Shown one piece after another: positions 20,890 through 43,494 of a stretch of DNA of 64,000 bases (position 1 is the first letter of the stretch; the number at the start of each line of letters is the position of its first letter). The notes under the pieces are model-generated. The model ran no database searches and was not told the DNA's origin. It worked only from the letters and a program-made list of their open reading frames with translations. Both the position numbers and the translations under genes were made by a program. Origin of the DNA: a virus (Duplodnaviria; Caudoviricetes); IMG/VR virus record IMGVR_UViG_3300043466_002015, positions 1,462 to 65,461 of that record. The stretch is one strand, 5' to 3'.

Positions 20890-21489
20890 ATGACCGTAGC
20901 GGCTTATGTTCGAGTTAGCACAGCTTCACAGAATGAGGCTAGTCAGAAGCGTGAGATTACCAAGTGGTTGTCTGGAAACGGCATCAACGCCAACCAAGTG
21001 CTGTGGTACGTTGACAAGGAGAGCGGAGAGACGCTTAAGAGAGCCGAGTTCGAACAGCTTCAGCGAGATATTTTCAACGGCGTCATCAAAACTGTCGTCG
21101 TGTACAAGATTGATCGCCTCTCGAGATCACTAAAGGATGGGATCGATACGCTGTGTACGTGGTGTCAGAACGGGATCCGCGTTGTCTCAACCTCGCAACA
21201 AATCGATTTCACAGGCGCAATGGGACAACTGGTTGCGGCAGTGTTGTTTGCCGTTGCGCAGTTTGAAACTGAGACCAGAAGAGACAGGCAAGCAGCTGGA
21301 ATCGCGGCAGCAAAGGAGAAAGGAACTTATCGAGGAAGAGCACCAGGAGCTACCAAAGCTGGAGTTAACCCCTCTCGCGCTGCGGAACTTCGAGAGAAGG
21401 GACTCACGCATCAGGAAGTTGCGAAAACGCTAGGAGTGAGTCTGAGAACAGCATTCAGGTACTCCCAACTGCCATCGAGTCAGACATAG
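20890..21489 (+). CDS. Small serine recombinase (resolvase/invertase family)
   Basis: YVRVST catalytic motif, DRLSRS and a C-terminal HTH. Confidence 0.95.
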   Translation: MTVAAYVRVSTASQNEASQKREITKWLSGNGINANQVLWYVDKESGETLKRAEFEQLQRDIFNGVIKTVVVYKIDRLSRSLKDGIDTLCTWCQNGIRVVSTSQQIDFTGAMGQLVAAVLFAVAQFETETRRDRQAAGIAAAKEKGTYRGRAPGATKAGVNPSRAAELREKGLTHQEVAKTLGVSLRTAFRYSQLPSSQT

Positions 21490-23522: not shown

Positions 23523-24073
23523 TCCGTCACCTCCACGCCAAAATGCGAACCGTCATCAAATACCTTTTCGTTGAAACTATCACTCCAACCGTGTGCTCCG
23601 TGAAATTTGTCTGAATAACAACAAGGTGGATTAAAATCGTTTGGATCTTCTTTCCATCGCCACCATCGATCCCGATGCGGCTTGAACTCCTCAGCATTGG
23701 CAAATTGTCGATATTGCTTCGGCTTCTCGATCTTGCGTAACACAACAGCCCATCCGGTACTTGGATGAGGGCCTTCCCATGCTTCAACGGATCGATCAAT
23801 CAGCAACCTGTATTCACCAGCTACTACGACACCAATCCGCACCAACTCCCATCCTTCTGGTACGCCTGGGATGCCTCGAAAACCTTGCTCGTTGCTCATT
23901 TCTTCCTCCACATCGCATAAGAAATCAAACCACCACCAGCCACCGCGAACGGAACCCACCAGGGTATGGCGGATTCCACTAGGTAGCGAAATTCGAATAA
24001 GCTCATTGGTTTTCCTTTGCAATTCGGAATATCGTGAATTCAACATATCACCGTGATATGCGGAGTTCCGCAT
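23519..24073 (-). CDS. Hypothetical protein (true start may be the internal MSNEQ)
   Basis: ORF track. GGAAGAA precedes the internal ATG near 23899. Confidence 0.5.
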   Translation of the reverse strand: MRNSAYHGDMLNSRYSELQRKTNELIRISLPSGIRHTLVGSVRGGWWWFDFLCDVEEEMSNEQGFRGIPGVPEGWELVRIGVVVAGEYRLLIDRSVEAWEGPHPSTGWAVVLRKIEKPKQYRQFANAEEFKPHRDRWWRWKEDPNDFNPPCCYSDKFHGAHGWSDSFNEKVFDDGSHFGVEVTE

Positions 24074-24088
24074 ACTATTTGTTATGTT
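24041..24088 (+). mobile_element. Degenerate short attC-like site at the left end of array 1
   Basis: TATGCGG-AGTT-CCGCATA hairpin, 6-nt spacer, then GTTATGT. The R'' box is imperfect. Confidence 0.4.
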
Positions 24089-24516
24089 GACCTATGTAGA
24101 TACTTTTCTCTTAGGCCATAGCTACTCTTGCTGGTCTTGTCTTTGTAGTTGCCTTCGTGGTCGCGATACATTTGCACATCCGGCACGAACGTGTAAACAA
24201 ATCCTCCATCGCTGTAGTCAACATCTACTACAGTGCCCTCAACACCTACAGCCAGATTTTTCTCTGATCCCGACCAGCCACCTTCGCATTTGATTTTCTT
24301 GACAATGATAGCACGCTCCCCTTTTTTGATTGGAGAAAATCGCATTAGCAGTGCCTCGCTCTGTTCGACCAGTTTGACTAGGTAATAGTCCAATGGACCC
24401 CTAGCGAAAATCTCCTGAGCTTGCTGAATATGCTTCACTCCAGCCTTCATTCTCTCGACGAAATCCGGCAACATAACAACGGATTCCACCGAAGCCTCAT
24501 TAACGTCTGTTTTCAT
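24082..24516 (-). CDS. Cassette-borne hypothetical protein
   Basis: The stop lies in R' (G|TTA). The start and GAAAGG RBS lie inside the attC loop. Confidence 0.7.
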   Translation of the reverse strand: MKTDVNEASVESVVMLPDFVERMKAGVKHIQQAQEIFARGPLDYYLVKLVEQSEALLMRFSPIKKGERAIIVKKIKCEGGWSGSEKNLAVGVEGTVVDVDYSDGGFVYTFVPDVQMYRDHEGNYKDKTSKSSYGLREKYLHRST

Positions 24517-24559
24517 GGTTTACCTTTCTTATTCGGCTCGGTGAATCCGAGCGTTATCG
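24471..24559 (+). mobile_element. attC site
   Basis: ACATAAC-AACGGATTCCACCGAAGCC...GGCTCGGTGAATCCGAGC-GTTATCG, with extrahelical bases on the left arm. Confidence 0.85.
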
Positions 24560-24793
24560 TGACAAAACCTCTACCGCATCTTTCGCCTCGTCGTGGAGTC
24601 GCTCTCGCCACGCATCCGCTACTTCATTCTTAAACTGCTGTGGAGACCAACCAGACTCAATCGCGAGCGTTACCGCTTCCCAAACTGCATCTTCTACCTT
24701 AGATGGCGTCCGAACTCCCATTCGCAATCCAGAACCGTCAAACCCTAAACTCAAGCCTAGTGGTTTCATAAATACACCTTTGCACGATAACAA
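24554..24793 (-). CDS. Cassette-borne hypothetical protein
   Basis: Stop lies in R' at 24554. Confidence 0.65.
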   Translation of the reverse strand: MLSCKGVFMKPLGLSLGFDGSGLRMGVRTPSKVEDAVWEAVTLAIESGWSPQQFKNEVADAWRERLHDEAKDAVEVLSR

Positions 24794-24874
24794 ATCGGTA
24801 AACCGAAGTCGCCGGTCACCTAGTTCTCAAGCCCAAGTCTCTTGGCGGCGACTCGGTTACCGCTGGCGTTCATT
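24785..24874 (+). mobile_element. attC site
   Basis: CGATAAC-AAATCGGTAAACCGAAGTCGCCG...CGGCGACTCGGTTACCGCTGGC-GTTCATT. Confidence 0.9.
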
Positions 24875-25205
24875 TGAGCTTTATGCAGTCGTTGCACACA
24901 AAACTTGACTGTTTTCTGGTCTTACCGTTATCACACAACAAAACGTGCTGCTCTCTTACTTTTGTGCGTTCCTGCGGAAACTTCCAACGTTTGCATCTTG
25001 GGCATTGTCGCTGGCAAAGATGATGAATGCTCGTCATGTCATGAGCCCATTGATGCCACTGCAAATAACCATCTGGCGGCATCGAATCAATTGCGTAGCA
25101 CGGTCCTGGCTTCATCCCCATTTTCCACCAAATGAACAATTGATTGGACCGAAGCCGCGTTCGATCCGTTTTCTGATGGTTAATCGACCGACGCGGCTCG
25201 GTCAA
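24870..25205 (-). CDS. Cassette-borne Cys-rich hypothetical protein
   Basis: TGA stop lies in R'. CxxC pairs. The start lies within the attC and is uncertain. Confidence 0.65.
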   Translation of the reverse strand: MTEPRRSINHQKTDRTRLRSNQLFIWWKMGMKPGPCYAIDSMPPDGYLQWHQWAHDMTSIHHLCQRQCPRCKRWKFPQERTKVREQHVLLCDNGKTRKQSSFVCNDCIKLK

Positions 25206-25219
25206 TCAAAGCGTTACTC
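25131..25219 (+). mobile_element. attC site
   Basis: AATGAAC-AATTGATTGGACCGAAGCCGCG...CGCGGCTCGGTCAATCAAAGC-GTTACTC. Confidence 0.9.
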
Positions 25220-25681
25220 CGCCACATCGCACGAAAACAGATTCGGTGCCTGTCCACCCCAGAACTCTTTCGTGTCCAAACGCTCCATGTCGTCGCGAGT
25301 CGATCGCACGCGACAGTAGGGAGCTGTCACGACGACAATTCCTCTCGAGTTGTAGTGTCGCATAATCACTCCAGCGTGATTTCTCCACGGCCACTCTGAC
25401 CCATTGCCCAACAGCTTCCAACCGCAATTGTGCATCCTTCCATCAGACTCATCCCGCTTCCACAATATCGCCTGAGTCAAAACCAAGTCTCCCTTGTTGT
25501 CAAATACGCGATTGATCTCAATACAATCAACTTCATACTCGTGCGTTTCTGGCATCAAAGGAGACCCTAAAAAAGAAAGTAGCGCGGCAAGCATCATGCT
25601 TTTCCTGTAACAAAAAGGACCGTGTTTTTGTTTCAATCCCGATCGGTAAACCCGACTACCAAATTCGCCCGCAAACGTCAT
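25214..25681 (-). CDS. Hypothetical protein, possibly exported (start probably MMLAALL)
   Basis: ORF track. The stop coincides with the terminal R'. Confidence 0.55.
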   Translation of the reverse strand: MTFAGEFGSRVYRSGLKQKHGPFCYRKSMMLAALLSFLGSPLMPETHEYEVDCIEINRVFDNKGDLVLTQAILWKRDESDGRMHNCGWKLLGNGSEWPWRNHAGVIMRHYNSRGIVVVTAPYCRVRSTRDDMERLDTKEFWGGQAPNLFSCDVAE

Positions 25682-27826: not shown

Positions 27827-28160
27827 GGTTACCCCTTCGCGCTATCTCTGAGCGCAACAATTCCTAGTAATCCGCAGGTTATTTATCGACGCTGCAACCG
27901 GGATTAATCCCCCGACTAGCCTGCTGGCTACCCCTCACGTCTATCAGCAGTGTAGGCTTTCGCCTGCTCACTGAAAATTGATCTCACTCCGGTGAGATCG
28001 CTCGGCATCGTCTCGGTCTGTGCTCTCGCCTTAGACTCTCGGTGACGCTGCACACCGAATAATTTTTACCAAAAATATCCGATGCGATCTGCACTGTCAA
28101 ATCATTGGTCAAACACACTTTATAAGACGCATGCCAAATAGAATATCGGAAATACCCTAC

Positions 28161-28189
28161 TTGACACCACAAGGGCTTGCCGATACAGT
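28161..28189 (+). promoter_or_regulatory. Sigma70-type early promoter
   Basis: TTGACA-17 nt-TACAGT upstream of the plus-strand operon. Confidence 0.75.
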
Positions 28190-28256
28190 GCAACACCCCA
28201 CGGGGGACGGCGGAAACGCCGATTCAAAAACAGTTCAAAACACAGGAGAAAGAAAC

Positions 28257-28769
28257 ATGGCAGCACGCAAACCATTCAAGGTTCAGAGTCGAGAGCAAGG
28301 ACGGGGTCGCATCAGCACCAACTCGTTCGCAACATTGAAAGAGGCACAGGACTTCGTCGCCAGCCACTGGCAAGGCGCTGACTACATCGACGGGGAAGCA
28401 AGCTTCCATACCGATTACTGCGACTTCAACTGCGTTGGATTCGTGCTGGCGGACATCGGCGAGCGTTACTGGGTTGATCGCGAAGGGTTTTATGAGTGGG
28501 AATGGAAAGACCTCGATGGCTCGAAGCGGTTCACCGTGGTTGCCTGGAGCGATGAGGAAGACCGATCGCCGCAGAAGACCGTCATTGCAAGTTTCGGCAC
28601 ACGGGAGCAGGCGATTGCCGAAGCGATCAGGTTGTGCAACGACGCAACGACGATCCATGTTGAAGACAACGGCAAGAACATTGGCTGGGCGCACGACAAG
28701 GACTTTTACGACGATGTTCCATTCGAGCAGGTTGCGTACCCTGCCGATGATTCACCGGTTCCTTTCTAG
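28257..28769 (+). CDS. Early hypothetical protein
   Basis: ACAGGAGA RBS before ATG 28257. Confidence 0.7.
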   Translation: MAARKPFKVQSREQGRGRISTNSFATLKEAQDFVASHWQGADYIDGEASFHTDYCDFNCVGFVLADIGERYWVDREGFYEWEWKDLDGSKRFTVVAWSDEEDRSPQKTVIASFGTREQAIAEAIRLCNDATTIHVEDNGKNIGWAHDKDFYDDVPFEQVAYPADDSPVPF

Positions 28770-28820
28770 GTCGAAACCCCTTCGGGGGTCCAATGGTACA
28801 GTGCCACTGCTGATGAGACC
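28769..28820 (+). ncRNA. Hammerhead ribozyme, type II
   Basis: GGTC-GAAA-CCCC-TTCG-GGGG-TC^CAATGG-TACAGTG-CCACTG-CTGATGA-GACC. The complete catalytic core is present, with a GUC cleavage triplet ending at 28790. Confidence 0.92.
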
Positions 28821-28841
28821 AATACAAACAGGAGAAAGACA

Positions 28842-29129
28842 ATGAGTACAGCAACAGGCAGGCAGGGTTTTGGATTCTGGGACACAACGTGCTACCCGAT
28901 TGGGGGCTGTTTCCGCCGCTTTGGGCAGAACGAAGCCGTTACCGACATCGCGAAATTGGATCGGGCATATCAAGGGGCAACCCACACGGGAAAGATCATC
29001 AGGGATGGGAAGACTCTCGCGATTGCTTTTGGCATCACCTCAGTAGAGTCGAGGGCTCGTAAGGCGTTCGAACCGAGCGAGCAAAGCGACTGGGCGTACA
29101 GCCGCGCTGAGGCTGGGTACGGAGATTAA
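28842..29129 (+). CDS. Early hypothetical protein
   Basis: ACAGGAGA RBS. Confidence 0.7.
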   Translation: MSTATGRQGFGFWDTTCYPIGGCFRRFGQNEAVTDIAKLDRAYQGATHTGKIIRDGKTLAIAFGITSVESRARKAFEPSEQSDWAYSRAEAGYGD

Positions 29130-29177
29130 CTAGCAGGGGTTAGGGCTAGTGCGGCAGGTCACCCGACCTGCGTCCCC
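29129..29177 (+). ncRNA. Unassigned pseudoknot motif, copy 1
   Basis: ACTAGC-AGGGGTTAGG-GCTAGT-GCG-GCAGGTC-ACCC-GACCTGC-GT-CCCC. Confidence 0.75.
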
Positions 29178-29207
29178 AGTTCATTCACATTCACAGGAGA
29201 TTTCCAC

Positions 29208-29591
29208 ATGCTTACGAACTTTCAAAGTGCGATCGACTTGGCCTCCAATGGTCGCAAACGGCTCCAGAAGACGAGCGAGACACGTTACGTGTATTTGAAC
29301 CGAGCTCGCCGCGCGTGCCACGATGCGATGGCTAGGCTTGCTGAATCGGGCGAATACACACACTGCCACAGAAGCTTCCTCATTCGCGACACGTTGCTAG
29401 TGGTCGAACAATGGTTTCCTGATCTCGGCACCTTCGGAGTTGAGAGCATTTATCAAGGCAGCAACCAGCGATCGCCAGCGATCGACTATTTGAACACAGG
29501 TGATGGCTACGAGCCGACCATCATGTACGTTCGGGGTCGGTTCCGCATCGGATGCTGGGCGGACATTGTCGAGCGCGGCAGCTACAACTAA
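29208..29591 (+). CDS. Early hypothetical protein
   Basis: ACAGGAGA RBS. Contains a YLNTGDGYEPTI segment. Confidence 0.7.
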   Translation: MLTNFQSAIDLASNGRKRLQKTSETRYVYLNRARRACHDAMARLAESGEYTHCHRSFLIRDTLLVVEQWFPDLGTFGVESIYQGSNQRSPAIDYLNTGDGYEPTIMYVRGRFRIGCWADIVERGSYN

Positions 29592-29617
29592 CACACAACA
29601 CACAGGAGATTTGGAAA

Positions 29618-30283
29618 ATGAGTCACGAAACGACACTTCATCCGTTTGAAGCCGCAGGACTGGGGCAAGCCCCCTTTCGGCTGCTCGCGATCCGCAAGAA
29701 TGTCTACTCCGCAGCACCCGGGCACAGCCAACCAGGAGGCTGCTGCTCGTATTGCTCTCAAGGCATCCTGTGGGAGTGCGTGATCAGATCTAGAGACGAT
29801 AAGACGTTTGTCGTTGGTCAAGATTGCGTGAGAAAGCTCGACAGAGGCGACAACAAGCTGGCAACCGCTGTTACGCGAGAACTCGCTCGCATCGCCAGGG
29901 AAGAGCGAGAAGCCGCGAGAGAGGCACGATGGCAAGCTCGGCGGGTCGCTCGCGAGGCGGAGCTAGATCGCCAACGTGAAGTCAACGGTGGATTGACGGA
30001 CAATGAGGTTGCGCAGCAGGCTCGCGAGAAGGCTGAGGATGAGGCTCGAAGAGTCTGGCGTGAGCGGAACTGGTGGCTGATATCGGTCCTTCAAGGGCAG
30101 TCCGGCGAGTTCTGCCGAGGTATGTGCGATACGTTGGAGCGCGGACCTGTCAGCGGGCTCTCGGAGAGGTGCCAATCGATCATGGCTGACGTCTACGCCA
30201 AGTCGTTCGGTCGCAGGGGGTCGAAGAAATACGATGCGGCAATCGACAAATTTACGGAAAGAGTCGAGTCGAGAGACCGTTGA
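29618..30283 (+). CDS. Early hypothetical protein, Cys-containing N-terminus plus coiled coil
   Basis: ACAGGAGA RBS. CSYC...VGQDC motifs. Confidence 0.7.
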   Translation: MSHETTLHPFEAAGLGQAPFRLLAIRKNVYSAAPGHSQPGGCCSYCSQGILWECVIRSRDDKTFVVGQDCVRKLDRGDNKLATAVTRELARIAREEREAAREARWQARRVAREAELDRQREVNGGLTDNEVAQQAREKAEDEARRVWRERNWWLISVLQGQSGEFCRGMCDTLERGPVSGLSERCQSIMADVYAKSFGRRGSKKYDAAIDKFTERVESRDR

Positions 30284-30351
30284 GGCTCGAGGGGGTTAGG
30301 TCGAGTGCGGCGAGCCTTTAGGCTCGCGTCCCCGCTGACACTGTGTCAGCA
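30281..30351 (+). repeat. 71-bp exact direct repeat, copy 1 (copy 2 at 33025-33095)
   Basis: The sequence is identical at both positions, and similarity continues through GGAGAGAGACGATGA. Confidence 0.9.
30285..30333 (+). ncRNA. Unassigned pseudoknot motif, copy 2
   Basis: GCTCGA-GGGGGTTAGG-TCGAGT-GCG-GCGAGCC-TTTA-GGCTCGC-GT-CCCC. Confidence 0.75.
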
Positions 30352-30383
30352 CAACCGTGAGACGTTGATTTTGGAGAGAGACG

Positions 30384-31211
30384 ATGAAAACGAAGACGAA
30401 GACGAAGACAAGAAAACAAATCAAGACTAAGGCGGAAATTGAACTGGCTAGGCGAATTAATTTCAGAGGACAGTACGTAGATTCGTTGCGATTGGCTGGC
30501 GAAAAGTATCTTAAGATTGCGGGCGGAGGCAGTTTGCTTGACGTGCAATCGATTCTGCAAGAAATAAATCGTCGTCACGCCGCTGCCGTGAAGTCTGACT
30601 GGGGAATGTCTCCGGCAAGTTACAAAAAGCTTCGAGACAAAGCGGCACAAATCCTTCGAGGCTTTACTACTGGTTATTCCATGGGAGAAGTGAAAAAACT
30701 TGTCATCGGCGAAAAACCGTTTCTGACGGTTGATAATACTCGAGAGTACGCCCGTAGTTCCAAGTACACAGCAACACACGGTGAACTGATTGTCACGATT
30801 TCGCTTGCCGAATTGCGTAAGATCGAGTGCGTAGAAGGTGTGTGGACTGTTCGCCTCGCAGGAGGGCAAGCCCAATGGTTGCGCGCCAAAGGGCTGAAAG
30901 GCAATTGTCGAATCGGTTGGGTGAAAGGATACCTTGTCGGATCCTCGCACGGCGCAACCCTCGATGAATGCCAACTGCTCGAGGCAGGAAAAGCAACTCG
31001 AGGCGACGATGGAAAGATCAAGCGATTTGACAGATTCATCGGCTTGCGAGACCGAGTTGCAGCAGGCGCATGCGAAGCTGGCGTTTTGGCATTCTGCGAG
31101 CGTCATGGGCTCAACCCCGACTTCGGCTATCGCATCGATTATCTACTCAGCCTCAAGGATGACCTCGCTGCATCGTACTTGAATCGAGTGGCTCGACTGC
31201 TCAAGCGATAG
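30384..31211 (+). CDS. Early hypothetical protein
   Basis: 275 aa with a GGAG RBS and a C-terminal GAC..G...FC motif. Confidence 0.7.
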   Translation: MKTKTKTKTRKQIKTKAEIELARRINFRGQYVDSLRLAGEKYLKIAGGGSLLDVQSILQEINRRHAAAVKSDWGMSPASYKKLRDKAAQILRGFTTGYSMGEVKKLVIGEKPFLTVDNTREYARSSKYTATHGELIVTISLAELRKIECVEGVWTVRLAGGQAQWLRAKGLKGNCRIGWVKGYLVGSSHGATLDECQLLEAGKATRGDDGKIKRFDRFIGLRDRVAAGACEAGVLAFCERHGLNPDFGYRIDYLLSLKDDLAASYLNRVARLLKR

Positions 31212-31335
31212 TACTTGGTTCTCCCGATAGTTTCCGCACTACTATCGGAAAGTCTCACAAAGTGCGGCGCGGTGCTCCCGATGCGTATTCGGGGGACTTT
31301 TCAACCGTGCCAATTACAATTCTCAGAAACCCTAA

Positions 31336-31364
31336 TTGACACGGTGTCGCGTTGACGATACATT
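31336..31364 (+). promoter_or_regulatory. Second sigma70-type early promoter
   Basis: TTGACA-17 nt-TACATT. Confidence 0.75.
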
Positions 31365-31409
31365 GGTAACTGCACTTCGCAGCACCAACAAAAACACACA
31401 GGAGAATTG

Positions 31410-31880
31410 ATGATGACTGACAATTTGTTTGAGACCGACCCCCGCAGTTTCGCGCTCAATTTGGCAGAAAACCAAGTGGTTTCCGCTGATCACCTGCTGC
31501 TCTGCGCGATCAAGTACATGAGTCATGACGATGTTCGCGACATGCTCGACGCAAATGGTCTCTCCCCAAGATTCGACGAAGAAGAGGTGTGCATCGATTG
31601 CGGTGGCGAAAACATCGAAGAGGGCACCTGCACCGACTGCGAGCGAGAAGATTGGTTGTCGAAACACGACGATGGTAATCACGACATCGATGCGATGAGG
31701 ATCGATATCTCCAATAACAACCTTGCAGTCGGCGACGACGACAGGGCTGGCGAATACGAGCACGCTGAAATTGTGAGAGCATCGGTCGAAAACGGACAGA
31801 TAACGCAAGCGCGAGAACAGGCTGAGCGGTACGGTTATTCGCAGGAATGGGTCCAAAGCCTCGTAGATTGCGAGGGCTGA
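31410..31880 (+). CDS. Early acidic hypothetical protein with a zinc ribbon
   Basis: ACAGGAGA RBS. CIDC...CTDC motifs. Asp/Glu-rich. Confidence 0.7.
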   Translation: MMTDNLFETDPRSFALNLAENQVVSADHLLLCAIKYMSHDDVRDMLDANGLSPRFDEEEVCIDCGGENIEEGTCTDCEREDWLSKHDDGNHDIDAMRIDISNNNLAVGDDDRAGEYEHAEIVRASVENGQITQAREQAERYGYSQEWVQSLVDCEG

Positions 31881-31882
31881 TA

Positions 31883-31929
31883 GCTTGGAGGGGTTAGGCC
31901 AAGCGCGGGAGTCCTCGGGCTCCGTCCCC
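31883..31929 (+). ncRNA. Unassigned pseudoknot motif, copy 3
   Basis: GCTTGG-AGGGGTTAGG-CCAAGC-GCG-GGAGTC-CTCG-GGCTCC-GT-CCCC. Confidence 0.75.
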
Positions 31930-31996
31930 AGATTGTGAATCATGGCACATCCTCCATGGTGGCAAGCCGAGCCGAAACGGCACAGGATTTAATACA

Positions 31997-32800
31997 ATGA
32001 AGACTGAACGACAATGGCAAGCAAGATTCCGAAACAGCATTGGTGGAATCCTCTTTTGTGGTGCGCGGAGACGAGGTCGAGGCAAGTGGCTAAGTGGTGA
32101 TGATGTGCCTCAAGAAGTCCGAGACTACCTACACCTAAAACTTGCTCAAGGTGCTGGTCGGCGATACTACCAACGCGACTGGAAGTCTTTAGAACTGATG
32201 AACGACGAATGTAGACCGGAATCGCATTTCTATCGGCAGTGGTTGGTGGTCGGTTTCAGAGTCAACGAGGAAGCCATCCGGCAGCCCGCAAAGATCGAAG
32301 TTGACCTCGGCAAACTTCGTGATGTGCTGCGGGGCATCAACGAAGGTCGCAACCTCGATAGTTGTTTTGACGTAGTGTCATTCGGCTGGAAAGATGCCGA
32401 TCTAGACCCATCTGGTTGCACTGGCATCAAGTCGCTGGACCGGATCGAAGGAAAACGGGTTGTCGTTACTGTTGGTGGACACAAGACGTTTTGTGACCCT
32501 TGCCAAGATGAAGACAGTGGTACTGAGATGTCCGACAGTGACTGGTGCGCACACAGCATCGTTTGCGAATGCGGAACATATTGCGAATGGACCGGAGATG
32601 ATTGGTGCGCTAGTTTCAGCGAGATAATCAAGGTGCCTGTCGTCCATAGCAAAGGCGTTGTGGACTACGACAAGACCTCTCGACGCATCATCAAAGCGGC
32701 AGAAAAGTGTATCGCTCCAATTGCCGACAACTGGGCCGACACCGACAAAAGCCTCGACGAACTGTACAACGAACTACACAAGGAAAGAGAAGTATCATGA
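31997..32800 (+). CDS. Early hypothetical protein
   Basis: ACAGGA RBS, 267 aa. Confidence 0.65.
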   Translation: MKTERQWQARFRNSIGGILFCGARRRGRGKWLSGDDVPQEVRDYLHLKLAQGAGRRYYQRDWKSLELMNDECRPESHFYRQWLVVGFRVNEEAIRQPAKIEVDLGKLRDVLRGINEGRNLDSCFDVVSFGWKDADLDPSGCTGIKSLDRIEGKRVVVTVGGHKTFCDPCQDEDSGTEMSDSDWCAHSIVCECGTYCEWTGDDWCASFSEIIKVPVVHSKGVVDYDKTSRRIIKAAEKCIAPIADNWADTDKSLDELYNELHKEREVS

Positions 32801-33009
32801 GCGCGAGTGAAAGATTAGGCGAGATCGCACGACGAGCCAAGGAGACGCAGGAAGCCATAGCGAATGCTGATGTTATGCAAGATATGCAAAGCGTTTCAGA
32901 AGTACTCCGACTGATCGCAATCATTCAAACACTGTCTGCCGATGTTCTGAATGAATTTGCAAGCTCAATCATTCCGTTGCCTATTTACGATTCGAGGATA
33001 GACCCATGA
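32797..33009 (+). CDS. Early hypothetical protein
   Basis: ATGA overlap with the upstream stop. Confidence 0.6.
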   Translation: MSASERLGEIARRAKETQEAIANADVMQDMQSVSEVLRLIAIIQTLSADVLNEFASSIIPLPIYDSRIDP

Positions 33010-33028
33010 AGGGTCGAAGACGAGTGAG

Positions 33029-33077
33029 GCTCGAGGGGGTTAGGTCGAGTGCGGCGAGCCTTTAGGCTCGCGTCCCC
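33029..33077 (+). ncRNA. Unassigned pseudoknot motif, copy 4
   Basis: Identical to copy 2. Confidence 0.75.
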
Positions 33078-33126
33078 GCTGACACTGTGTCAGCAAGCAG
33101 TGAGACGTTTGATCAGGAGAGAGACG

Positions 33127-33642
33127 ATGAGTACAGTGATCGAAGTAGTAACGCCAACCGACACAACCCACCACATTGAGTCCGCTACGGACAGAGCGAA
33201 GTTTCTGCGGCGCGTCTTGCGGGAGGATGGATGGACAATTTCTGCAAGATCTTCGGAGGATTGGCAGTTTGTCTTCAGGAGAACGATTAGGGGAAAACCA
33301 GGGGATCCAAATGTGGATGTTATCGTCCGCATCAAGGACAAATTTTCTTTGGTCGGCAAATGGGGAAATCAGAAGTCATTTCACGATTCCGATGAAGTGA
33401 TTGTACCGAAACCAACTCGCCTCTGGCTTGCTTACGGATCCCAACAAGCCGCAGTCAAGTTCCTGCTTGAAGGATGCCACTTCATCATCAGCGGGTCATC
33501 CGGCTCAACCAGCAGTAGTAAGCACGGGCTAGCATTCGTTTCATTGCAGGTGTTGAAAAAAGATGGATACGGTACTGTAGAAATCGGTGGAGGTTCCGTG
33601 TACGTCAATGGTCGCATGGTTTGTTGTGGATCGGTTGAGTAG
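33127..33642 (+). CDS. Early hypothetical protein
   Basis: CAGGAG RBS before ATG 33127. Confidence 0.7.
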   Translation: MSTVIEVVTPTDTTHHIESATDRAKFLRRVLREDGWTISARSSEDWQFVFRRTIRGKPGDPNVDVIVRIKDKFSLVGKWGNQKSFHDSDEVIVPKPTRLWLAYGSQQAAVKFLLEGCHFIISGSSGSTSSSKHGLAFVSLQVLKKDGYGTVEIGGGSVYVNGRMVCCGSVE

Positions 33643-33729
33643 TGACGTTTCGCGGGCATCGCTCACTGTCGCAAGGTCAGTGGGCGAGCCCCTGCAACGT
33701 CGCAGGATTGCTTCACACAGGAGATTAAT

Positions 33730-34068
33730 ATGAGCACGACGAGACTAGACGATTTTCGCACAGAGCATCTAAGTGGCGAGTCACTTGAGATCGCCAAGAT
33801 TGTAAGGCAAGTGATTGGAGAAGACGCTTTTGGTGGTGGATGCCGCGCGTTCTGGACACCTGAAGAATGGCGGGCTCGCAAAGAGGAGTATGGCACCGAT
33901 TCTCTGTTAATACTGGTGCATGACGGTGGCGACTTGGCGCCCTACTGCAACTGGGATTACGAGCAGTACTCGCTGAGCGACCAGCTTGACGAAGCGCTGA
34001 CAAAGGCTGGCTACTATTACGAGCAATGCACTTGCTGGTATTCAGCAGTTTATCGCTTGCCATCCTGA
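33730..34068 (+). CDS. Early hypothetical protein
   Basis: ACAGGAGA RBS. Confidence 0.7.
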   Translation: MSTTRLDDFRTEHLSGESLEIAKIVRQVIGEDAFGGGCRAFWTPEEWRARKEEYGTDSLLILVHDGGDLAPYCNWDYEQYSLSDQLDEALTKAGYYYEQCTCWYSAVYRLPS

Positions 34069-34154
34069 TCAGATTGCGCGCTCGAGGGGGTTTGCCCGGA
34101 CCCCTGAGAGTCTGCAATTTCGCAGTGTTGATTTAACCTTTGGAGATTTTAGCA

Positions 34155-34577
34155 ATGATCAATTCGATTTGTGTCAGTTTCATTCCAGATATTTTGCTCG
34201 ATTCTTTTCTTGACGAGGGCGACTTCCCTTTTTTTGCATTTCGGTGGGCTGCAAAATTCGAGGACTCTACGGCGATTTCTCGAGAGCGAATACGCATCGA
34301 GCAGACTTATGACTCTAAGTCTATTGACATCGGATTCGGCGATCACTCGTTTAAGTGCAACAAGACAATCTGGATCGATCTGCCAGCAAGTCTCAGTTAC
34401 GACGAAGCAAAAGAAATTGGTGAACGCGCATCTTCCTTTGTGAGGGGCTGGGTGCTTGGGAAACTGTCGACCATTCCAAACTGCGAATATTGCGGGAATC
34501 AATGCACCGACGACAACGGATGCGACGCGCACATCAGCGGTGGGGATTCTGCTGCCGCTTCCGTCGAATGTAAATAA
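34155..34577 (+). CDS. Early hypothetical protein
   Basis: GGAG RBS and a C-terminal Cys cluster. Confidence 0.6.
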   Translation: MINSICVSFIPDILLDSFLDEGDFPFFAFRWAAKFEDSTAISRERIRIEQTYDSKSIDIGFGDHSFKCNKTIWIDLPASLSYDEAKEIGERASSFVRGWVLGKLSTIPNCEYCGNQCTDDNGCDAHISGGDSAAASVECK

Positions 34578-34589
34578 AGGAGATTGATA

Positions 34590-35030
34590 ATGACCTTTGA
34601 AATTCTAAAAACGGTCACAGGGAAACGATTTGAAAGTCTAGGTACTTATCTGCTTCCGAGGCTGCACCTAGTGGTGAGCTATACGCGAGGCGGCGTTAGC
34701 GACATCACAGGCGAGCCATGTGAACGAGGTTACTGCATATCGGTGCAACACGATTGCTGGGCTGATGAGGGCTTTCGCTCGTTCATCGTCGACGGGAAAG
34801 GTGATCCTGTCGAAAGCCTGTTGCTATCTGACAGTTTTTCGAAAAAAACATTGGACAACCTAGTTTTGCAAGTCCGAAATGGAATCCATGATGCCATCGT
34901 GGCATCGCTGTACGCAGAGGCAATTGCATCGAGACCGCAATACGGTTGGGCAAGGAAGATCTTGCCATTGGAGGAGCCTGTCGCTGCGTCAGTGCGATTT
35001 GATGGCAACGTAACGGACGATTTTTTTTAA
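34590..35030 (+). CDS. Early hypothetical protein
   Basis: AAGGAG RBS. Confidence 0.65.
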   Translation: MTFEILKTVTGKRFESLGTYLLPRLHLVVSYTRGGVSDITGEPCERGYCISVQHDCWADEGFRSFIVDGKGDPVESLLLSDSFSKKTLDNLVLQVRNGIHDAIVASLYAEAIASRPQYGWARKILPLEEPVAASVRFDGNVTDDFF

Positions 35031-35047
35031 CCACAGGAGGTGTTGAC

Positions 35048-35185
35048 ATGGCAAGATGGATTTTGATATCAGTGGTGTGCTGCTGCGGTTGCGCAACACA
35101 CAAGGCGAAGATCGTAATTACCAGGGTCCATGGAGAACCCGCGATCAGTATTGAGATTGAAGAAAAGGAAAGTTGCCGTAAGTAA
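35048..35185 (+). CDS. Small putative lipoprotein (45 aa)
   Basis: Manually read MARWILISVVCCCGCATHK..., with an AGGAGG RBS and a lipobox-like GC. Confidence 0.5.
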   Translation: MARWILISVVCCCGCATHKAKIVITRVHGEPAISIEIEEKESCRK

Positions 35186-35199
35186 TCAGGAGACATGGA

Positions 35200-35379
35200 A
35201 TGTTGGTGTTAAGGCGAACAATTGGAGAATCGGTTATAATCGCGGGCAACGTGAAGATAACCGTAATTGAAGTCAAAGCTGGCAAGGTTAAACTCGCGAT
35301 TGATGCTCCTAGGGACATAACAATCGACCGCGAGGAAATCCAGTTGGCGAAGCTTAGGGAGGGATTGAAAGATGCGTAG
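35200..35379 (+). CDS. csrA: Carbon storage regulator CsrA/RsmA homolog (59 aa)
   Basis: Manually read MLVLRRTIGESVIIAGNVKITVIEVKAGKVKLAIDAPRDITIDREEI, which matches the CsrA signature. Too short for the ORF track. Confidence 0.92.
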   Translation: MLVLRRTIGESVIIAGNVKITVIEVKAGKVKLAIDAPRDITIDREEIQLAKLREGLKDA

Positions 35380-35839
35380 CGACATTCACATTCGGTGGTT
35401 GATTCGCAGGGATCTAGCTACTGTGCTCGATATTGAACACCAAAGCTTCGAGTTTCCTTGGCAAGAGAAAACATTCATCGATACGTTGCGTCAACGCAAT
35501 TGCATCGGTATGGTCGCTGAGTACGAAGGTGACGTGGCTGGCTTTATGGTCTACGAACTCCGTAGAACGAGTATCAGCCTGCTTTCCATTGCCGTGCATC
35601 CTGACTATCGGCGAATCGGAATCGGAACGGCTTTAATTGCAAAACTTTTAACGAAGCTTAATCACGTCCGCAGGAATCAAATTGATGTGCAGGTTCGCGA
35701 AACGAATCTTGGCGCGCAGTTATTCTTGCGTGATTCAGGATTCCGCGCCGTAGCAGTAGTGAGCAATTACTACGATGATTCGGATGAAGATGCATACCTG
35801 TTCAACTATGAAAAGGCATCGCAACAAGTCGTCTCGTAA
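35372..35839 (+). CDS. rimI: RimI-like GNAT N-acetyltransferase
   Basis: IE..SF.FPW, IAVHPDYRRIGIG, VRETN..AQ.F and YY.D..EDAY motifs. Confidence 0.85.
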   Translation: MRSDIHIRWLIRRDLATVLDIEHQSFEFPWQEKTFIDTLRQRNCIGMVAEYEGDVAGFMVYELRRTSISLLSIAVHPDYRRIGIGTALIAKLLTKLNHVRRNQIDVQVRETNLGAQLFLRDSGFRAVAVVSNYYDDSDEDAYLFNYEKASQQVVS

Positions 35840-35911
35840 CGAAAAGCATTTAATGACCAGACGCTGACATGTATCGTGCATGCCAGCGTCTTTATTTTGA
35901 CATGGCTACAG

Positions 35912-41310: not shown

Positions 41311-41907
41311 TTATGCGGACCTAGGCATCTCCAAATCGCCAGCAACAAGTTCCCGCCGTTCAAACACGGTTTCGGCTTTGTAGCCACGATACTTACAACA
41401 CATATCCACGACTAACGGCAATAACTCCTTCAGTCGCGTATTCCAATCTGATGTTCCCGTCGACGACAACACTTGCGCGACCTCTACCAAAAATTCCTTT
41501 TCGTGCTCCGCCTTCGACGAAATTGCGAACTTGCGAGCCTCATAGTTTTCAAACAGTTCAACTAAAGCACCCGAAGACGTAGATTTCTTGTTCATTAGTT
41601 TTCCCTCGTCCATTACCTTGTAACATAGCCTTGTCGCGTTGCGACGATTACTTTTCATCCGACCAAATAATGCAAAATCTTTCGATGTCGATACCCGTAC
41701 TCGCCAATTGTCGAAACTATGCTTTGACGCATAGCTCGCTGCCGCATCTTCGCTGTTCCAAACGCACAATTGATGATCCGCAGTACGGCATAGCGTACTG
41801 GGGTCGATTGTATCCCTCCCGTTTTTGCAAAGAACAAACATCGTAGGTCCGCATAACAATTGATTGCATCGAAGTCCCCGTCGAAGCGTTTTCTGATCTT
41901 TAATCAC
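41311..41907 (-). CDS. Cassette-borne hypothetical protein
   Basis: Stop lies in G|TTATGC at 41310. The start lies within the attC. Confidence 0.6.
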   Translation of the reverse strand: MIKDQKTLRRGLRCNQLLCGPTMFVLCKNGRDTIDPSTLCRTADHQLCVWNSEDAAASYASKHSFDNWRVRVSTSKDFALFGRMKSNRRNATRLCYKVMDEGKLMNKKSTSSGALVELFENYEARKFAISSKAEHEKEFLVEVAQVLSSTGTSDWNTRLKELLPLVVDMCCKYRGYKAETVFERRELVAGDLEMPRSA

Positions 41908-41940
41908 CGAGCGGGGACTCGATGAACCAAAGCGTTATGT
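41851..41940 (+). mobile_element. attC site
   Basis: GCATAAC-AATTGATTGCATCGAAGTCCCCG...CGGGGACTCGATGAACCAAAGC-GTTATGT. Confidence 0.88.
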
Positions 41941-42300
41941 CGACGAATCAGCCCACCCTGGAGGCGTCCAATCCGTCACTGTCTTGCCTTGCTCGATGTA
42001 GCTCAACTCCGATGCCTTCATGCCCCACCTGTCCGCCGCTTCTCGCAATCCATACCCAAGAATTCTTAAGCGGTAATGCCGGAACTTCTCGCCACGTTCC
42101 ATTCGCAAAACGTGCTCGCTGGACACTTCGCCGCGTCCGTCGCAAACGTGACACGGTAATTCACGAACTGGCGGCCCGCTGTGCCCTGGCGCGTATTTCA
42201 CGAAAACCGCCGTCATGGTCTTGTCCCCGTCGCACTCTGGACAGGCGACATAACAACCGCATGCACGGGAGCACTCATCAGCGTCGTTTAGTTTGGTCAT
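41935..42300 (-). CDS. Cassette-borne DnaJ-type zinc finger + XRE HTH protein
   Basis: CPECDG...CHVCDGRG and GLREAA...ASELSYIEQG motifs. The RBS lies in the attC loop. Confidence 0.7.
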   Translation of the reverse strand: MTKLNDADECSRACGCYVACPECDGDKTMTAVFVKYAPGHSGPPVRELPCHVCDGRGEVSSEHVLRMERGEKFRHYRLRILGYGLREAADRWGMKASELSYIEQGKTVTDWTPPGWADSST

Positions 42301-42338
42301 ATCTTTCCTTTCGTGCCCCGTGATGCGGAGCGTTAGGT
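42248..42338 (+). mobile_element. attC site
   Basis: ACATAAC-AACCGCATGCACGGGAGCAC...GTGCCCCGTGATGCGGAGC-GTTAGGT. Confidence 0.9.
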
Positions 42339-42653
42339 GGACGATTTGAGAGCGTCGAGAATAGCATCGAACGTAACTGAATTGTCTCCACGCTTACTGT
42401 CGTACCACGCACGCAATTGGCTTTCTTGCATTTCCGCCAGTTCGTCACGCCAATCTCCGCGAACAATAAACGGCGAGCCTTGGACATGCTTTCGCGTTGT
42501 TGGATCTATAAAACAAACTGCCGTTTCCCACTCCATATATCCAAAGCCCGTCATGCGATGCAAAACGCTGATCCAACAAGTTTCGTTAACCGTCCTAACG
42601 TGTCGCTCCCCGCCTTCGCTGCGGTTGTAGTCTTCTGTTTTGTCTTCAAACAT
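42333..42653 (-). CDS. Cassette-borne hypothetical protein
   Basis: Stop lies in R' at 42333. Confidence 0.65.
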   Translation of the reverse strand: MFEDKTEDYNRSEGGERHVRTVNETCWISVLHRMTGFGYMEWETAVCFIDPTTRKHVQGSPFIVRGDWRDELAEMQESQLRAWYDSKRGDNSVTFDAILDALKSST

Positions 42654-42700
42654 TCTCGTTTACCTCTTTCCTTTCGGCCCGGTGAATCCGAGTGTTATGC
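42593..42700 (+). mobile_element. Half-degenerate attC site (right arm intact)
   Basis: CGGCCCGGTGAATCCGAGT-GTTATGC resembles the right arm at 24534-24559. Only CCTAAC remains of the left arm. Confidence 0.6.
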
Positions 42701-42997
42701 GGACTTAGTTGGTGTTGATCTGAAATAATCCGCTAATCCCAACCCAATTCGTTGCATCTCCCCTGACTCAAAAGCCAACCGCAACCTGTGCATCGCGTTC
42801 GCTGTAGCGTTGTATCGTTGCTCAAGTTCCTCCCAACCTCCCTTTTGATGATCAACCATCATGTGCAACAGACAGTCGATCAAATACAAATCGCTCATTG
42901 GCGTGCCATCATCGTGTGTAAGCATCGAAACCTCCAGCCGCATAACAATCCCATGCACCCAAGCGGCGATCGGGTGCGTTGACTTGGAAACCATCAC
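42695..42997 (-). CDS. Cassette-borne hypothetical protein
   Basis: Stop lies in R'. The N-terminus (PIAAWVHGIVMR) is encoded by the attC arm. Confidence 0.65.
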   Translation of the reverse strand: MMVSKSTHPIAAWVHGIVMRLEVSMLTHDDGTPMSDLYLIDCLLHMMVDHQKGGWEELEQRYNATANAMHRLRLAFESGEMQRIGLGLADYFRSTPTKSA

Positions 42998-43027
42998 CCC
43001 GCCGCTGGGTGATGGGTAGCGTTATGC
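42940..43027 (+). mobile_element. attC site
   Basis: GCATAAC-AATCCCATGCACCCAAGCGGCG...CGCCGCTGGGTGATGGGTAGC-GTTATGC. Confidence 0.92.
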
Positions 43028-43089
43028 AGACCTACTTGAAATCCAGATCCTTCCGCCTGACAAAACGATAAACCAAAGCCGCCGGTCAT

Positions 43090-43494
43090 CTACGCACAGT
43101 CAATAAACTTAAGCACCGTTTCAACCCCAACATCAAGTGGAAAATCGACATACCACAGGATGTGCGAGCCCATCTTTTTTTGCACCGTCCAATACGGTCT
43201 GTCGTGCGACTCGGTGAGAACGCGAAACGGACCCTTAAAGTAAGTGAGCCTCGGAGGACTCTTGCGTTTAGATTCGCTAGTGTCTCTTTCGCATTCTCGG
43301 TCGAAACGCTTGCGGTCATCCGACCAGTAACCAAGCTCTGCTAACCTAGCTTCCATTTCGTGCTTTGGTGCTAGTGGTCTCTTCACTGCAATTGGCATTT
43401 CCAAACTCCATTTACCACAGGGAAATCTTCTGAACAATCTTAACGAGGCGATCTTGTTCGGATGGGTTTTTCTTGATGCGAGCATAATCGTCAA
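43090..43494 (-). CDS. Hypothetical protein (true start probably internal)
   Basis: ORF track. It overlaps the end of the ParB-like gene. Confidence 0.5.
   Translation of the reverse strand: MTIMLASRKTHPNKIASLRLFRRFPCGKWSLEMPIAVKRPLAPKHEMEARLAELGYWSDDRKRFDRECERDTSESKRKSPPRLTYFKGPFRVLTESHDRPYWTVQKKMGSHILWYVDFPLDVGVETVLKFIDCA

Follow-up and report, generated by a model that had tools for sequence, protein, structure and literature searches.

Can the recombination site of an integron cassette stand in front of its gene and provide that gene's translation start? Integron cassettes are defined as promoterless genes that are followed by a recombination site, attC, and are read from the promoter Pc, and the strand selectivity of the integron integrase (IntI) is explained as a device that guarantees the orientation of the cassette. 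The question is raised by a 64,000-nucleotide stretch of a tailed phage (hereafter the window; positions 1462–65461 of the 65,461 bp virus record IMGVR_UViG_3300043466_002015, complete according to CheckV), for which an earlier note had proposed that attC sites double as translation signals and coding sequence. We found in the window two arrays of attC sites and small open reading frames (ORFs), read on the minus strand from 25223 to 24082 and from 43090 to 41311, with three complete sites each, six in all, and two additional half sites (B2 and B0). Each array thus contains at least two attC sites in a record without an integron integrase, and the arrays are two clusters of attC sites lacking integron integrases (CALINs) made of integron cassettes. 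In our assessment it is quite probable that these cassettes are reversed, with the attC preceding the ORF on the bottom strand, and that a Shine–Dalgarno (SD) sequence with an ATG in the attC loop serves as the start in about four of ten.

The repeats that lie between the small ORFs are imperfect palindromes of the form ..ATAACGC-arm-loop-arm-TTGTTATG.., and they were missed by a generic repeat finder. A crude scan of the window for TAAC...GTT hairpins was too unspecific, and a covariance model was used instead, which was built from the alignment of the six window sites and applied to the whole window using cmsearch without filters. The model found exactly six sites, with 73–93 bits on the minus strand, compared with 8–18 bits on the plus strand at the same places; it found no complete site at B2 or B0. 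In all six sites, AAC and TTGTT are invariant and are paired in the consensus fold, and a single fold is common to the six, with compensatory changes in 10 of 18 pairs. Two bases are bulged, namely a T in six of six sites and, after a stem of 6 bp, a second base (C in four sites, G in one and T in one), and both are located on the 3' arm of the minus strand, opposite the AAC arm. The integron integrase model TIGR02249 had no match anywhere in the 65,461 bp record, and a scan for sigma-70-like promoters, which was crude and made for other bacteria, gave no match near either array; attI was not searched for as such. Nor do the arrays contain canonical cassettes, in which the ORF is on the top strand and has its own attC behind it, at the 3' end. 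The features of the two arrays are as follows (a slash marks the crossover point; bit scores are from cmsearch).

25214–25594, minus strand: C1, a conserved phage gene upstream of array 1, whose stop TAA/C is the array entry junction
25128–25223, minus strand: attC A1, complete, loop without a start codon; 86.5 bits; bulges on the 3' arm
24870–25121, minus strand: cassette ORF C2, 83 aa, start ATG 25121; stop TGA in the TGAAC box of A2
24782–24878, minus strand: attC A2, complete, without a loop start; 75.3 bits
24554–24769, minus strand: cassette ORF C3, 71 aa; AAAGGTG upstream of ATG 24769; stop TAA in the box of A3
24468–24563, minus strand: attC A3, complete; 87.3 bits; open loop of about 40 nt with GAAAGGTAAACC-ATG (24516)
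24082–24516, minus strand: cassette ORF C4, 144 aa (loop ATG) or 130 aa (box ATG 24474)
24082–24092, minus strand: end of array 1, 5' box only (..CATAA/C), followed by phage sequence with a small hairpin (24057–24074)
43053–43090, minus strand: B0, remnant attC 3' arm and box, similar to the 3' arm of A2; about 45 nt without an ORF follow
42937–43031, minus strand: attC B1, complete; 73.3 bits; GTG/ATG in the loop in the frame of D1, no SD
42695–42925, minus strand: cassette ORF D1, 76 aa from ATG 42925, with GGAGG 5 nt upstream
42654–42703, minus strand: B2, half attC with 5' box, 5' arm and a loop with SD; no 3' arm
42333–42653, minus strand: cassette ORF D2, 106 aa, from the attC-loop-derived ATG 42653
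42245–42342, minus strand: attC B3; 88.8 bits; open loop with GAAAGGAAAGAT-ATG (42300)
41935–42300, minus strand: cassette ORF D3, 121 aa, with two CxxCxG motifs
41848–41944, minus strand: attC B4, complete, loop without ATG; 93.3 bits
41311–41841, minus strand: cassette ORF D4, 176 aa from ATG 41841; stop TAA in a bare box (..CATAA/C, 41311–41321)

Most of what the earlier note had read from the letters was reproduced. The segment 24471–24559 corresponds to the complete site A3. The eight minus-strand stops that it had placed in attC boxes (24082, 24554, 24870, 25214, 41311, 41935, 42333 and 42695) all lie in an xTAAC or TGAAC box, as TAA in seven cases and as TGA at 24870; of the eight boxes, five are parts of complete attC sites, one is part of the half site (42695), and two are bare boxes at the array ends (24082 and 41311), the former containing the stop of C4. 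The SD and ATG strings ending at 24516, 42300 and 42653 are present as written. That at 42653 had been assigned to an attC loop, and the signals are indeed there; the site is truncated, however, and retains the 5' box, 5' arm and loop only. Up to its ATG, B2 is identical to A3-type sites of other viral contigs (compared with L043:2204).

The sites of the window belong to the chromosomal-integron attC family of a bacterial family. A homologue of D3 (64% identity) was located on a contig of a metagenome-assembled genome (MAG) labelled Planctomycetaceae bacterium (G001), which contains 17 matches to the covariance model and a true IntI (L014 1045-2181; 397.8 bits, compared with a cut-off of 265). 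Matches to the model (E ≤ 1e-5) were found in 65 of 101 sampled genomes of the same bacterial family, often as long arrays, and IntI scored above the cut-off in G001, G030, G095, G042 and G067. In five host arrays (97 kb), all 112 sites lay on the single strand of their own array. Moreover, in seven of seven host integrons (G001:C483, G030:C1, G095:C10, G095:C7, G042:C1 near 2.87 Mb, G067:C8 and G045:C6), the model matches lay 5' of intI on the intI-coding strand, and because of this integron geometry the strand of the model in the hosts is the attC bottom strand. The first cassette ORF of G001:C483 (L014 507-884) lies on the strand opposite to the model, and the ends of its cassette, GTTATTTGG and CCAAATAA/C, complement each other, as the two ends of a single cassette should. 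The phage host is probably a member of the family of G001, judging from these matches. When 249 window frames (≥80 codons) were compared with the host loci by tblastn, D3 gave the only match, and no prophage copy was found there.

Two further features were observed among the bacterial contigs. Of 12 host attC sites shown, five (G001 loci L004, L005, L007, L011 and L012) are preceded on the bottom strand by about 23 nt that are identical in four and differ by one base in L007, which points to repeated copies of one cassette end. A cassette of the phage type is present on another bacterial MAG contig (L026, G013:C33:129-226), with an attC of 59 bits, GAGGAAAAACT-ATG in its loop and an ORF of 223 aa in frame after the attC on the same strand; this contig may be viral.

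The strand on which the phage genes lie is the bottom strand of their attC sites, and four independent lines agree on this point: the arm that holds the bulges, the geometry of the seven host integrons, the array ends and junctions at AA/C, and the joint movement of each ORF with its upstream attC. With respect to the first, the bottom strand of an attC site carries its extrahelical bases, which include a conserved T and are spaced by 6 bp, on the arm that faces the 5'-AAC (PMC5027507, in the part of the source consulted), and this is where they are found on the minus strand of the window. With respect to the array ends, both arrays terminate, in the direction of the genes, at a bare ..CATAA/C box that is followed by unrelated sequence, and an array in L001 ends likewise at the same locus as array 1. 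Ends of this kind are consistent with crossover at the gene strand's 5' box, but not with a cassette that has to end in its own attC. In addition, the boxes flanking each ORF are complementary at 9–11 of 11 positions by eye, better than the two boxes of one site, as expected of hybrid sites that arise from a crossover at AA/C.

We then compared the orientation of the ORFs, taking the longest ORF in each interval between neighbouring sites. In the host arrays, the longest ORF was on the model (bottom) strand in 19 of 99 intervals, with the other 80 on the opposite strand. For the window and four close relatives, all of the 17 intervals had it on the model strand; for 31 additional viral loci (about 30 contigs), which had been found by a pattern of the arm motifs without any loop or gene content, this was so in 66 of 74. 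The phage total of 83/91 differed from the host value of 19/99 (Fisher's exact test, P = 2e-25). Every orientation test that was run agreed with the suggestion of the earlier note that the cassettes are oriented against the canonical integron sense. The position of the stop codons followed the same pattern. Where a site of the phage sets had an ORF upstream, the stop of that ORF was in nearly all cases at the crossover (..TAA/C) or at most 14 nt 5' of it, and only a few stops lay beyond, which indicates that the stop belongs to the cassette and not to its neighbour; in the host set, 69 of 112 sites had no such upstream ORF on that strand.

The cassettes have also moved between contexts as units that begin with the attC, leaving junctions at AA/C and hybrid boxes as footprints. 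D3 together with its upstream attC is present in L001 (a 94% D3 homologue), where the unit is placed in the array that corresponds to array 1 of the window, with another cassette before it and the array end after it. C4 with its upstream attC was found in four contexts whose flanks diverge at AA/C on both sides; in L020, L022 and L023, too, the C4 homologue is preceded by the site A3. The start of C1, ATG 25594 or 25597, matches that of its homologue in L001, which likewise has an attC directly after it. Among 13 pairs of homologous ORFs in different contexts, the median identity of the upstream attC was 0.96, compared with 0.605 for the downstream attC and a background of 0.61, and the upstream value was the higher one in 12 of 13 pairs. 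Related phages also carry different cassettes at one and the same locus, again with junctions at AA/C. Since ORFs keep their upstream attC across contexts, the mobile unit is C-attC-ORF-..TAA.

The loops of these sites were analyzed for start signals, defined as a four-letter word of TAAGGAGGT that ends 4–10 nt before an ATG. The earlier note had seen a ribosome binding site and a start in several loops, and in the first phage set (the window and its closest relatives) such signals occurred in 7 of 18 distinct loops, above the shuffle expectation (mean 1.6; none of 2000 shuffles reached 7). In the second phage set, 43 of 95 unique loops carried them (shuffle expectation 9.1), giving a phage total of 50/113 loops, compared with 1/112 for the host loops, where 5.7 were expected from shuffles. 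On the opposite strand, no such signal was found in either phage set, and 1/112 host loops had one. All seven loop starts of the first set were in frame with the downstream gene, and all 43 loop ATGs of the second set opened a frame of at least 60 codons into the downstream gene, two of which ran off the locus. The 3' arm of the attC has no stops in any frame, so the openness of the frame alone means little, and the chance of being in the frame of the gene is one third for each independent fusion. Two loop ATGs with weaker SD-like words were out of frame (L022:2920 and L001:2554).

One attC type illustrates the frame conservation further. Its 13-residue leader MSETNEASVQSVV was found, in frame in every case, in front of at least nine ORFs that are unrelated to each other, and divergence sets in immediately past the GTTGTT in the 3' box (IMG/VR loci L043, L044, L058, L062, L067-L069, L071, L072 and L074 share this attC body). 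As for the structure, the DNA folds and the RNA folds of A3 and B3 alike leave a loop of about 40 nt fully open, with the SD and the AUG unpaired; the sites without a loop start have longer and more stable stems. Four of the six complete sites of the window have no loop start, and the genes after these four most likely start 6–12 nt past the site. In three sites of other loci (L022:1928-2025, L001:2554-2649 and L020:2926-3023), it is the 3' box (GTTAGGTG.., GTTAGGCGG..) that looks like an SD sequence, with an ATG 2–4 nt beyond the site. This box would pair with the box that holds the stop of the previous gene, a possible coupling device.

Within the window, the use of the loop ATG was evaluated gene by gene. 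D3 belongs to a family of 13 members in which an invariant CPxCxG starts three codons past the box, and the stretch from the loop ATG to the invariant CPxC is free of ATG, GTG and TTG codons in frame; a start of D3 at the loop ATG 42300 is therefore well supported by its sequence family, and the 3' arm and box of B3 would form codons 9–18. D2 keeps its loop-derived SD and ATG despite the loss of the 3' arm, and most of its 39 homologues align from residue 1–3, which places ATG 42653 at the N-terminus of the family. B2 and B0 appear as decayed attC sites, B2 being now the fixed SD and ATG of gene D2. For D1, the attC-derived N-terminus AAWVHGIVMR proposed in the earlier note did not hold: its frame (ORF 42695-42997) opens in the loop of B1 without an SD, and this peptide is probably not made, because six of eight homologues start at or after ATG 42925, the codon preceded by GGAGG. 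For C4, the proposed N-terminus EASVESVVML is plausible from the loop ATG, in which case the 3' arm and GTTATG box of A3 would be codons 8–16; it is not the exclusive solution, given the second in-frame ATG at 24474. The conserved part of the C4 family (18 sequences) begins at LPDFVERMK, and several homologues that lack the methionine of the box still have an N-terminal extension. A start of C4 at the loop ATG 24516 is likely.

Several observations weigh against the interpretation of reversed attC-led cassettes with loop starts. As attC sites, the repeats are atypical in that the consensus fold leaves 2 nt on the 5' side and 1 nt on the 3' side unpaired between the R and L boxes, compared with an unpaired central spacer of 5–6 nt in classical attC sites (Nivina et al. 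2016, PMC5027507, part of the text), and in that the first bulged base is C in four of six sites, where G is usual. The minus-strand fold is the more stable one in only four of six sites, fold energy being a weak strand marker. The orientation test used the longest ORFs and not curated genes, and 8/74 ORFs in the second set were opposite, mostly as near ties; since the attCs and cassettes are related and the phage sets share some of them, the shuffle and Fisher figures overstate independence. The near-identical attC body that precedes at least nine unrelated ORFs diverges right after the 3' GTT, and a junction at this position is outside what the simple bottom-strand crossover model explains. 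As for the starts, the in-frame ATG 24474 of C4 lies in the GTTATG box directly before LPDFVERMK, and a further in-frame ATG before +45 nt is present in 24 of the 52 cassettes with a loop start, 51 of which contain some ATG, GTG or TTG in this range. A general test of alternative starts did not discriminate, so that an exclusive use of the loop start is supported case by case only, and the use of the loop ATG is deduced from sequence logic alone. Finally, the host was assigned from the attC family and one protein match of 64%, not from a prophage or a spacer.

One alternative is that the cassettes are reversed but that translation starts past the attC, the SD and ATG of the loop being a leftover or a site for ribosome loading or coupling. 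The box ATG of C4, the homologues of D1 and the additional in-frame ATGs of the 24 cassettes all agree with it, and ORF-11 of attI1 offers a precedent, since it aids translation by coupling alone (PMC8876359, as described in the part consulted). The alternative has difficulty with D3, which has no other in-frame start before its invariant CPxC, with L023:713 and L023:1467, where by eye only a TTG is present in the 3' arm, with D2, which starts exactly at the loop-derived ATG, and with the C4 homologues that have an N-terminal extension without the methionine of the box. Moreover, a loading site would not need a frame that is kept in 43 of 43 cases and across at least nine unrelated ORFs. We consider this alternative unlikely, although it is the most serious competitor of a start within the loop.

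It is far less probable that the repeats are regulatory hairpins of the phage, acting as terminators, processing sites or coupling elements, whose likeness to attC is only superficial and which IntI does not move. As RNA, the hairpins reach folding energies of –43 kcal/mol and are thus stable, their unpaired spacer is short, and IntI is lacking in the complete phage genome and in the five contig fragments of related phages. However, phage attC sites of other phages have been recombined by IntI1 experimentally (Qi et al. 2023, PMC9892861, in the part consulted). Furthermore, the 112 host sites found by the same covariance model are in arrays next to true IntI genes, the two boxes on either side of an ORF complement each other as those of hybrid sites from an AA/C crossover would, and the cassette content varies between related phages at one locus with junctions at AA/C. 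The least probable alternative, that these are ordinary cassettes whose gene strand is the top strand, with each attC belonging to the upstream gene and the loop ATGs incidental, draws on the facts that stop codons inside the first attC box are usual in classical cassettes, that the near-palindromic sites read TAAC...GTTA on both strands and that the fold-energy gap between strands is small, with the plus strand favoured in 2/6 sites, but it is contradicted by the bulged bases opposite the AAC arm of the gene strand, the position of the model on the intI-coding strand in 7/7 host integrons, the array ends at a bare 5' box in place of a complete attC, the conservation of the upstream and not the downstream attC (0.96 versus 0.605) and the frame of the loop ATGs with the downstream gene (43/43).

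For the reversed cassettes with loop starts, we propose the following sequence of events. Read in the direction of the gene, the mobile unit would be C-(attC hairpin)-ORF-..TAA, with the attC as the 5' leader of its own gene; the stop of the gene would abut the crossover point, and the folded bottom strand would be cut at 5'-AA/C-3'. The cassettes would be transcribed within the minus-strand operons of the phage, each supplied with start signals of its own, either in the open loop or shortly past the site, and with a stop of its own at the crossover. Where ribosomes start in the loop, the 3' arm (with its bulged bases) and the GTT box would be translated as the first 11–19 codons or so; in the window this may apply to 24516 (likely) and 42300 (well supported), and in the form of a remnant to 42653. 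The other cassettes would start 2–21 nt past the site. The phage itself is without IntI; the IntI of a host would excise and insert the units and shuffle cassettes between phages. A unit inserted into the attI of the host by the bottom-strand reaction would have its gene pointing toward intI and away from Pc; the silence under a host Pc that the earlier note had suggested would thus follow from the geometry of bottom-strand recombination.

More tentatively, phages of integron-bearing bacteria may keep a pool of mirror-image cassettes, each a translation unit complete in itself, in which the attC arm is a shared N-terminal leader and the loop provides the ribosome binding site and the start. 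The presence of one attC type with the same leader before at least nine unrelated proteins suggests that a module of attC and start may make new cassettes from any ORF. The leader that these proteins share might also act as a signal, e.g. for the packaging or delivery of accessory proteins.

The arrays lie in a genome of phage character. Nearly all long ORFs of the window are on the minus strand, and the annotated phage genes include a large terminase (TerL), a portal protein, a helicase, a primase-like protein, a Dam-type methylase, an Erf annealing protein and an exonuclease; the window contains no tRNA. AAAGGA-type SD sequences precede many other genes of the phage. A search of a phage collection gave no close isolated phage, the best TerL matches being at 23–24% identity (Vibrio, Acinetobacter and Rhizobium phages), and C4 gave one weak match there. 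No cassette protein scored above the Pfam or PHROG threshold; D3 had a weak helix-turn-helix match (HTH_31) below the cut-off. A block of plus-strand genes with reversed GC skew extends from about 28100 to 35840, in which five of six ORFs tested had no PHROG match and the sixth is a GNAT-type acetyltransferase (35372-35839). A single ORF of 4275 aa occupies 49858-62685 on the minus strand.

Two candidates for a recombinase of phage origin were considered and rejected. A small serine recombinase or DNA invertase is encoded at 20890-21489 on the plus strand, opposite to most genes (phrog_125, E = 1e-48); it belongs to a different enzyme family from IntI, and we know of no link between the serine invertase family and attC. 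Related phages with an IntI of their own were likewise not supported, since none of five contigs, all of them fragments, scored above the cut-off. One of these contigs (G006, the contig of L023) has only a generic tyrosine recombinase (L024 628-1704) with 23 bits to the IntI model, far under the cut-off, which lies about 1.4 kb beyond the attC array of the L023 phage.

The arrangement has several implications. Some cassettes with their own promoters, such as toxin–antitoxin cassettes, are reversed; here, a whole cassette class of opposite polarity comprises this phage and 31 further viral loci on about 30 contigs. If the interpretation is correct, phages use integron recombination for their own modular gene exchange and do not serve the expression platform of the host. 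An attC could then become, with its fold retained, both coding sequence and the region where translation is initiated, which bears on the birth of cassettes, and surveys that assign cassette genes by the orientation of attC would miscall genes or starts in viral data. In the literature that we searched, with subscription journals and supplements out of view, we found no class of bottom-strand cassettes with the attC upstream and no starts in attC loops.

The arrays can be compared with five known systems, each in the part of its source consulted. CALINs in phages have already been published by Qi, Rajabal, Ghaly, Tetu and Gillings (2023, PMC9892861), and like those reported here, they are arrays in which two or more attC sites are combined with small genes whose function is unknown, carried by phage genomes that lack IntI; in contrast to the present arrays, nothing on bottom-strand genes, an attC upstream of the gene or starts inside attC appears in the part of that paper considered. 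With classical attC sites (PMC5027507), the phage sites share the AAC/GTT R boxes, the L stem, two bulges 6 bp apart with a conserved T, a variable terminal loop, the AA/C crossover and hybrid boxes in arrays. They differ in a shorter spacer, a first bulge that is mostly C and a loop that carries translation signals, and the phage cassette differs from the classical one in that its gene is on the recombining (bottom) strand and the attC precedes the gene rather than follows it. ORF-11 and ORF-18 in attI1 (PMC8876359) are similar in that a recombination site holds an SD and an ATG that serve the expression of an adjoining cassette, whereas there the signals are in the platform site attI and are immobile, and they act through a short separate peptide and coupling. 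Cassettes with their own promoters, such as toxin–antitoxin cassettes (Richard et al. 2024, PMC13108822), are also independent of Pc. They are, however, a minority in canonical host arrays, whereas here whole arrays are reversed, and the phage arrays would rely on transcription of the phage operon and a start borne by the attC. Finally, synthetic attC sites in coding sequences (Nivina et al. 2020, PMC7439510) likewise place an attC hairpin inside an ORF; those were engineered, whereas the arrangement in the phages is natural and recurrent.

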